Positions 36,760-37,613 of a stretch of 64,000 nt of DNA are shown here, one piece after another (position 1 is the stretch's first letter; each line of letters begins with the position of its first letter). This stretch comes from Escherichia coli (lineage in GTDB: Bacteria > Pseudomonadota > Gammaproteobacteria > Enterobacterales > Enterobacteriaceae). The notes under the pieces are model-generated. The model had not been told where the DNA came from, did not search any database, and worked only from the letters and a program-made list of their open reading frames with translations. The stretch lies in assembly GCF_044324875.1 (NCBI RefSeq), contig NZ_CP172185.1. One strand, 5' to 3'. A program made the translations under genes and the position numbers.

Positions 36760-37011
36760 ATGCGTATACGTGTTTTTGGTTACCGGCACTGCCCTTCAGT
36801 CCATCGCATCATGCATCACGCAACGCGAATCCCCGATGAAATGGAACCGGATGTTGTGTTTATTGATGTCGCGAAGCACAGTGTGACGCTGCGGGATATG
36901 GCTGACCGTGCAGGCTGCCCGGTGGATAACTTCCCGTGTGTGTTTGTTGATGATGTGTATCTGGAGCCCCTTCCACCAGAGCCGGGCAAACCGCACTTTA
37001 CATACTGCTGA
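36760..37011 (+). CDS. Glutaredoxin-fold small protein with atypical CPSV active-site position
   Basis: 83-aa ORF; the pattern IRVFGYRHCPSVHRI ... NFPCVFVDD parallels the glutaredoxin CPYC and TVPQIFI motifs; RBS AGGAGG upstream. Confidence 0.5.
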   Translation: MRIRVFGYRHCPSVHRIMHHATRIPDEMEPDVVFIDVAKHSVTLRDMADRAGCPVDNFPCVFVDDVYLEPLPPEPGKPHFTYC

Positions 37012-37178
37012 ATATTTATTACCGGATATGGACAATCGCTTTCATTCGGGATAAAAAATACTGCGCGTTCCTGGTTTATTTTGCGTTGCTGTCATGACGT
37101 GTTTGCCTTCATTGCCGGGATCGCGCACTTTTTGTTATAACTCCCCGGAGGACACTGTCTGTAATCAGATGGAAACCT

Positions 37179-37613
37179 TTATCTCAGTGATGTCCTGGTT
37201 AATACAGAATACTGCCCCGGACCAAGTAACATAATGGCAATCCCCCCCATGAAATACAGCATTTCATTTTCAAGCCCCCACGCCCCTACTTCAGTCAGTG
37301 TGAAAAACTTCCCTGTTCCGACCAGAAGCGTGGCAACAATCAGTGTCAGCGCATAAATCAGAGCAGCAGGTCTGGTAAATATCCCAAGAATGATAAGTAC
37401 CGGAGCCACGATTTCACCAATATACACACCATAGGCAATAAATCCTGGCAAACCAGCATCCTGCAACATTGATATAATCCAGTTGACACCGTGCTCTATT
37501 TTGGCCACACCATGGAACAGCATCAATATACCAAATGTCAGTCTCAGCAACAGAAGACCTGTATCCGGGTAGTCTGTCAGTCTGGTAAAGAACATATTTA
37601 TTCTTGCTGGCAT
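37179..37613 (-). CDS. DoxX-family membrane protein
   Basis: 144-aa ORF with four hydrophobic helices and DoxX-like N-terminal LLRLTFGILMLFHG. Confidence 0.65.
   Translation of the reverse strand: MPARINMFFTRLTDYPDTGLLLLRLTFGILMLFHGVAKIEHGVNWIISMLQDAGLPGFIAYGVYIGEIVAPVLIILGIFTRPAALIYALTLIVATLLVGTGKFFTLTEVGAWGLENEMLYFMGGIAIMLLGPGQYSVLTRTSLR

Follow-up and report, generated by a model that had tools for sequence, protein, structure and literature searches.

The window, that is the whole stretch of 64,000 nucleotides that was analysed, belongs to an E. coli chromosome and carries on a mobile island an open reading frame (ORF) for a glutaredoxin-1-like protein of 83 aa and, facing it, an ORF for a DoxX-family integral membrane protein of 144 aa. 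The two ORFs are convergent and their stop codons lie 167 bp apart. The features of the pair and its surroundings are the following.

33930 to 36568: IS21-like element with istA/istB ORFs at 34051-35697 and 35471-36469; absent from strain TUM9803.
36748 to 36753, plus strand: AGGAGG ribosome-binding site (Shine-Dalgarno), 6 nt 5' of the ATG of the 83-aa ORF, read from the sequence.
36760 to 37011, plus strand: ORF of the 83-aa glutaredoxin-1-like protein, with ATG start, intact in the window; member of a tiny orphan family.
36790 to 36807, plus strand: codons 11-16, C-P-S-V-H-R, at the position of the Grx1 active site (CPYCVR) by alignment.
36934 to 36939, plus strand: codons 59-60, P-C; by alignment P59 is the cis-Pro60 of Grx1 and C60 a family-specific invariant Cys.
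36964 to 37008, plus strand: codons 69-83, EPLPPEPGKPHFTYC, a Pro-rich tail with a terminal Cys, delimited by alignment and pN/pS.
36971 to 36972, plus strand: TT in the window, a single T in nine close E. coli relatives, by sequence comparison.
37063 to 37133, no strand assigned: long imperfect hairpin between an A run and a T run; its arms are 37063-37074 and 37115-37126.
37179 to 37613, minus strand: ORF of the 144-aa DoxX-family protein (Pfam PF07681), with zero Cys.

The coordinates and the PF07681 match confirm that both ORFs are real and arranged as in the initial annotation, which had described a small protein convergent with a DoxX membrane protein. No in-frame start codon precedes the ATG of the 83-aa ORF. 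Over the whole gene, dN/dS among the three clades of its family is low (0.07-0.34, with saturated synonymous sites), which implies that this ORF is a real gene. The hairpin in the intergenic region might act as a terminator in both directions, for which the indication is weak: the z-score of the intergenic fold was -1.45 and not significant, a terminator scan gave nothing at 37063-37133, and the scan for promoters and terminators returned no excess over shuffled controls. A search of positions 36400-38700 against Rfam at E<=1 gave no match.

The 83-aa protein scored 17.1 bits with the Pfam family Glutaredoxin (PF00462; gathering score 22.9), 32.5 bits with NCBIfam GrxA (NF008401; E 7e-8, cut-off 84) and 27 bits with TIGR02183 (cut-off 106.5), and thus missed each of the three curated glutaredoxin thresholds that were applied. 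Members of the two other clades of its family, called P0005 and P0135, had no Pfam match at E<=0.01. The only PDB entries matched by the family profile were those of E. coli Grx1 (1EGO, E 1.7e-6; 1GRX, E about 2e-6). Grx1 (85 aa) and the 83-aa protein are 24-29% identical and align from end to end, with C11-P-S-V on C11-P-Y-C, R16 on R16, F58-P59 on V59-P60, which contains the cis-Pro, and VFVDD on IFVDQ. An AlphaFold2 model of the 83-aa protein based on an alignment of eight sequences (pLDDT 85.7) had the topology b-a-b-a-b-b, which is the order in Grx1, and its top PDB matches in Foldseek were 1GRX and 1EGO (TM 0.64). E. coli Grx1 was the best match irrespective of whether it had been included in the alignment from which the model was made. 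Structure prediction followed by fold comparison, which the initial annotation had named as the check on its proposal of a glutaredoxin-like fold, thus yielded a thioredoxin/glutaredoxin fold, with 1EGO/1GRX as the best match of both predictions. As the sequence matches and the AlphaFold/Foldseek matches to Grx1 agree, this assignment is sound, and the 83-aa protein is a divergent descendant of the Grx1/GrxA lineage. ArsC/Spx and TusA-like (CPxP) identities were rejected, since every match in sequence or structure leads to Grx1. The protein has no signal peptide and is cytoplasmic.

What the 83-aa protein shares with Grx1, its best match in sequence and structure, includes the nucleophilic Cys at position 11, R16, and the cis-Pro at 59/60 followed by the FVD strand. 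The Pro, which falls on P60 of Grx1, is invariant in the family and stands in the motif (N/K)FP, not TVP. The remainder of the active site is different. Where Grx1 has CPYC, the window type and the P0005 clade have CPSV and P0135 has CNLT, so that only the first Cys is kept and V (or T, in P0135) stands at the place of the second, resolving Cys; neither a CPYC-type dithiol (class I) nor CGFS (class II) occurs in the family. A single-cysteine redox protein had been suggested on the grounds of the CPSV motif. This was right with respect to the second active-site Cys, which is missing also from the most distant member, but C60 and C83 are invariant alongside C11 and H15, which implies that it is not a one-cysteine protein. 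Across the three clades the invariant residues are C11, H15, R16, the block FPCVFVDD, L71-P72-P73, P75-G76, T81 and C83. Position 53 is either Cys or His, and one P0005-type variant carries C60S.

The GGxxD glutathione-binding motif and the C-terminal helix of Grx1 are absent as well. In Grx1 these two elements bind glutathione by its gamma-glutamyl end. In the window the stretch YLEPLPPEPGKPHFTYC is found in their place and no helix is predicted beyond residue 51. The family has here a tail with the consensus EPLPPEPGKPxYTxC, which AlphaFold modelled with low confidence or as disordered. H15, C60 and this Cys-terminated Pro-rich tail are invariant features that Grx1 does not have. Twelve of the 15 residues at codons 69-83 are identical to those of the most distant clade, and pN/pS, calculated with synonymous sites near saturation, was 0.10-0.20 at codons 69-83 and 0.06-0.19 at codons 58-83, compared with 0.33-0.68 at codons 1-57. 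Judged from these sequence comparisons, of which the statistics are thin as there are three clades only, the tail is under stronger constraint than any other part of the protein. Since the curated scores were not reached and a dithiol or CGFS motif and the GG motif are lacking, the 83-aa protein should be classed as a glutaredoxin-fold variant rather than as a glutaredoxin.

The class II monothiol glutaredoxins (CGFS) and the C14S mutant of Grx1 (1GRX) likewise have only one Cys in their active-site motif, and the 83-aa protein amounts to a naturally occurring C14V variant of Grx1. However, unlike the class II proteins it lacks CGFS as well as the glutathione-binding residues, and its family has two further invariant Cys residues. 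NrdH-redoxin (1H75) differs by its CVQC dithiol and its place in nrd (nrdHIEF) operons; no nrd genes are present in any of the three contexts of the family, and the 83-aa protein has no ribonucleotide reductase nearby. ERp44 is a eukaryotic multi-domain protein of the endoplasmic reticulum with a CRFS active site and a regulatory C-terminal tail. It may be compared with the 83-aa protein by analogy, in view of the thioredoxin fold, the one active-site Cys and the importance of the C-terminal tail, but there is no detectable homology beyond the fold and the Foldseek match was weak (5XWM).

The family is very small. A word-indexed search of 5.8 billion proteins returned 14 clusters, of which those with a name were E. 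coli, and an exhaustive profile search of 1.84 billion representative proteins found only the three clades and fragments, the next matches (E about 1e-4) being ordinary GrxA-like proteins. No relative was detected with the peptide patterns of the family in 100,044 species genomes, nor with tblastn of the 83-aa protein in plasmids or phages. The P0005 type (clade 2) is 69% identical to the window type and is present in another 48 complete E. coli genomes, where it is mostly unannotated; P0135 (clade 3) is 60% identical and occurs on two metagenomic contigs (L015 and L016). The proteins of both are 83 aa long and end in the same tail as the window type. In E. coli XDL (NZ_CP043033.1; L014 15027-15278) the P0005-type gene lies between iha, a siderophore receptor/adhesin gene, and the pseudogenised ICE genes TIGR03757/TIGR03756, on a tRNA-Phe pathogenicity island with sitABCD, iucABCD-iutA and sodC as further cargo. 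The P0135 gene is convergent with katG and lies 3.9 kb from sodC (L015 1391-6047), with a 75-aa hypothetical gene and sodC following it on its contig. The same two genes occur on the XDL island (L022 22216-23093), where they are 66% (75-aa gene) and 71% (sodC) identical to those of the P0135 contig; the 75-aa product had no Pfam match. The recurrence of this pair suggests a common donor region for the P0135 and P0005 contexts. Genes for metal acquisition and defence against reactive oxygen are thus found near all three clades: sit in the window, iha, sit, iuc and sodC with P0005, and katG and sodC with P0135. It was also considered whether the small gene could encode a RiPP precursor, with a glutaredoxin-like leader and a conserved C-terminal core, and this was rejected as no maturase is adjacent to it in the three contexts.

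The best explanation of the locus, to which we give a probability of about 55%, is that two unrelated cargo genes were brought together, 3' end to 3' end, on a mobile island of E. coli and that the small one would encode a thiol relay for use in oxidative stress. While keeping the nucleophilic C11 and the cis-Pro, the 83-aa protein has lost the resolving Cys, the glutathione-binding GG motif and the last helix and has gained H15, one helical turn past C11, C60 after the cis-Pro, and the Pro-rich tail with C83. We infer from this set of residues that C11, activated at the N-terminus of its helix and perhaps assisted by H15, would attack a substrate or become oxidised, and that C83 on the mobile tail, or else C60, would resolve the resulting mixed disulfide or sulfenate. 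Such a relay would be of a cytoplasmic thiol-disulfide type independent of glutathione. Its proposed role in defence against oxidative stress fits the gene neighbourhoods of the three clades described above. If active, it would represent a new way in which a one-cysteine glutaredoxin site is completed, by a C-terminal Cys on a Pro-rich arm and not by glutathione, and it would be a minor accessory factor in the oxidative-stress and metal cargo of pathogenicity islands of E. coli, mainly in poultry-associated strains.

The main rival to the thiol relay is a metal or [2Fe-2S] site on the glutaredoxin scaffold, with C11, H15, C60 and C83 (and the Cys or His at position 53) as ligands and a role in iron/manganese or oxidative-stress homeostasis. 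The invariant Cys and His residues are just as compatible with the binding of a metal or an Fe-S cluster: four potential ligands are invariant in a protein of 83 residues and the exchange at position 53 is one that conserves a ligand. The contexts, rich in metal and reactive-oxygen genes (sit, iha, iuc, katG, sodC), agree with it too. Thioredoxin-fold [2Fe-2S] ferredoxins and cluster-binding glutaredoxins exist, and residues 26-76 gave a weak match to the [2Fe-2S] ferredoxin 4LTU. At E 0.07, however, this match is not significant, the protein conforms to no known metal-site motif and the glutathione-binding residues of the Fe-S glutaredoxins are absent. We consider a metal site rather unlikely. 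A broader proposal, which we put forward tentatively, covers either chemistry: the family may be an undescribed glutaredoxin-derived class, in which the resolving Cys and the glutathione site were replaced by a rigid Pro-rich arm with a C-terminal Cys (together with C60 and H15), acting as a swinging-arm thiol relay or as a Cys3His metal or Fe-S site, and which is spread by pathogenicity islands with genes for Mn/Fe uptake and defence against reactive oxygen species. The main curiosity of the locus is in any case this strongly constrained, Cys-terminated Pro-rich tail in a family that is almost confined to E. coli islands.

The tail is also the place where the gene decays. In the nine relatives with a single T at 36971..36972 the 1-nt deletion replaces the last 12 residues by an unrelated C-terminus and gives a product of 97 aa. 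Because both other clades have proteins of 83 aa with the same tail, it is the window copy that preserves the ancestral, intact protein; the database entries of 97 aa arose by frameshift and lack the most conserved segment. Nine of the 17 island copies of the small gene are frameshifted; that of the window and eight others are intact. Such frequent frameshifts suggest that current selection on the small gene in E. coli is weak. This raises the question whether the gene is a decaying passenger without function, of which the conservation reflects selection in a donor organism only. The C60S variant of the P0005 type, the position of the P0005-type copy amid pseudogenised ICE genes where it is mostly left unannotated, and the loss of part of the upstream region to the IS21-like element in the window are all in line with this. 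On the other hand, the intact copies, the low dN/dS between the clades, the strong ribosome-binding site and the 191 bp of original sequence still present upstream of the gene speak against it, and we regard a mere passenger as less probable still than the metal site. The present value of the analysis lies in annotation: the small gene carries the label 'hypothetical' or, for some copies in RefSeq, 'thioredoxin domain-containing protein', the iha-linked copy has no annotation in most of its genomes, and the 97-aa entries are the result of a frameshift.

The 144-aa protein is an ordinary member of the DoxX family, of a subfamily that is widespread in Enterobacterales. It scored 70.4 bits with PF07681 (cut-off 23.6) over profile positions 1-83 of 85, and 1387 relatives were found at E<=1e-10; the score for the HvfX family Cu-binding RiPP maturation protein (NF050144) was 30.2 bits and did not reach the cut-off of 80. 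Like 75 of 113 full-length relatives, the window DoxX contains no Cys at all. Orthologues with 60-77% identity are numerous in Enterobacterales, and E. coli often carries a paralogue that is 88% identical, which is listed in 1702 blocks of the assembly collection. One copy of the latter (L007 6001-6435) lies amid IS66, IS3 and IS110 remnants beside the gene of a 701-aa TonB-dependent receptor, with no partner gene. The orthologues stand beside genes for TetR, HxlR or LysR regulators, FMN reductase, old yellow enzyme (OYE) and aldo-keto reductase (AKR). On Hafnia-like contigs a divergent LysR regulator gene and an MBL-fold gene precede doxX; in Pectobacterium a TetR gene precedes it, beside OYE and aldo-keto reductase genes; and on a Klebsiella-like contig the order is HxlR, MoaF-like, DoxX, FMN reductase. 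These appear to be typical neighbourhoods for quinone or electrophile stress. In contrast, the window DoxX gene is alone between IS remnants and the small gene and has no partner enzyme, as if it had been captured on the island without its usual partners. By analogy with the orthologue contexts, the window DoxX most likely acts alone in quinone or electrophile stress.

In the initial annotation the two genes had been proposed to form a small redox module. In such a module DoxX would relay electrons between the quinone pool and a soluble thioredoxin-fold partner in the manner of DsbB and DsbA. In its favour, every one of the 17-19 E. coli genomes with the island has the two genes side by side, the DoxX orthologues occur in quinone/electrophile-stress contexts, and DoxX proteins have a tie to thiol homeostasis, known only from the DoxX-SseA-SodA complex of M. 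tuberculosis as summarised in PMC7907618. No paper was found that connects DoxX with a glutaredoxin. The pair is confined to a single lineage of the island, present in 17-19 of 5426 complete E. coli genomes at >=98.5% identity. This implies that all co-occurrences represent one evolutionary event. Outside this lineage, where its recurrence in other genomes had been named as a check on the module, the pair was not found: no DoxX gene is present within about 50 kb of the P0005-type gene or near the P0135 gene on its contigs, and tblastn revealed no relative of the small protein in the contexts of the DoxX orthologues. A possible second pair, of the 88%-identical paralogue and a P0005-type gene, was rejected as neither is near the other, no P0005-type small gene lying within 6 kb of the paralogue. 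The co-occurrence test thus largely refutes the module.

Other observations point in the same direction. As the genes point towards each other, with 3' end facing 3' end, they are not co-transcribed and share no regulatory region. The resemblance to DsbA-DsbB pairs, a thioredoxin-fold protein with a quinone-linked membrane protein, is superficial: DsbB has two cysteine pairs where the window DoxX, without any thiol, has nothing with which it could exchange electrons with a thiol protein, and the small protein, devoid of a signal peptide, is cytoplasmic. Furthermore, the genes decay reciprocally. In one island lineage DoxX is kept while the small gene is frameshifted; in the other the small gene is kept (WP_053287681.1, 83 aa) while DoxX is frameshifted in the three genomes inspected. 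Each gene therefore persists where the other is lost, and among the copies seen both are intact in the window only. A redox module of the two proteins is very improbable on this evidence and should not be propagated in annotation, although a quinone-mediated link between them is conceivable, and the convergence with a redox-related gene in two of the three clades (DoxX, katG) could hint at a loose functional theme. The small gene and the DoxX gene are probably adjacent by an accident of island assembly; the fold of the small protein is supported and a redox module of the two is not.

The island itself was recovered with a query of 1.2 kb around the pair from 19 of 5426 complete E. coli genomes (>=98.5% identity); all matches were chromosomal and most came from chicken isolates. 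Annotation of relatives shows, in this order, tyrosine integrase, (TPR protein, ISAs1), EcsC-family protein, hypothetical protein, beta-barrel outer-membrane protein, YebF paralogue, DolP paralogue, small gene, DoxX, IS remnants and sitA(BCD). The island is integrated at glnH in the window and two relatives, at gcvP in strain TUM9803 and at ulaE in strain 23CRST013. Its core (26736-34015) consists of paralogues of envelope proteins behind the tyrosine integrase, namely the EcsC-family protein, the beta-barrel outer-membrane protein, YebF and the BON-domain lipoprotein DolP. The IS21-like element of the window replaces 230 bp, namely 98 nt from the 5' end of the dolP paralogue and 132 bp between dolP and the small gene, and is distinct from the ISEc62 copy that TUM9803 has at another place on its island. 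Downstream of the pair sitA is intact and sitB has been cut to a short pseudogene by IS66 remnants (38591-39650), as in TUM9803; this truncation probably renders the Mn/Fe transporter of the window island non-functional. The sister lineage 23CRST013 keeps sitABCD. Genes for myo-inositol catabolism, named iolB, iolE and iolC-like after the annotation of the 100%-identical region of TUM9803, lie at 45990-50785, still within the island and downstream from the IS cluster.
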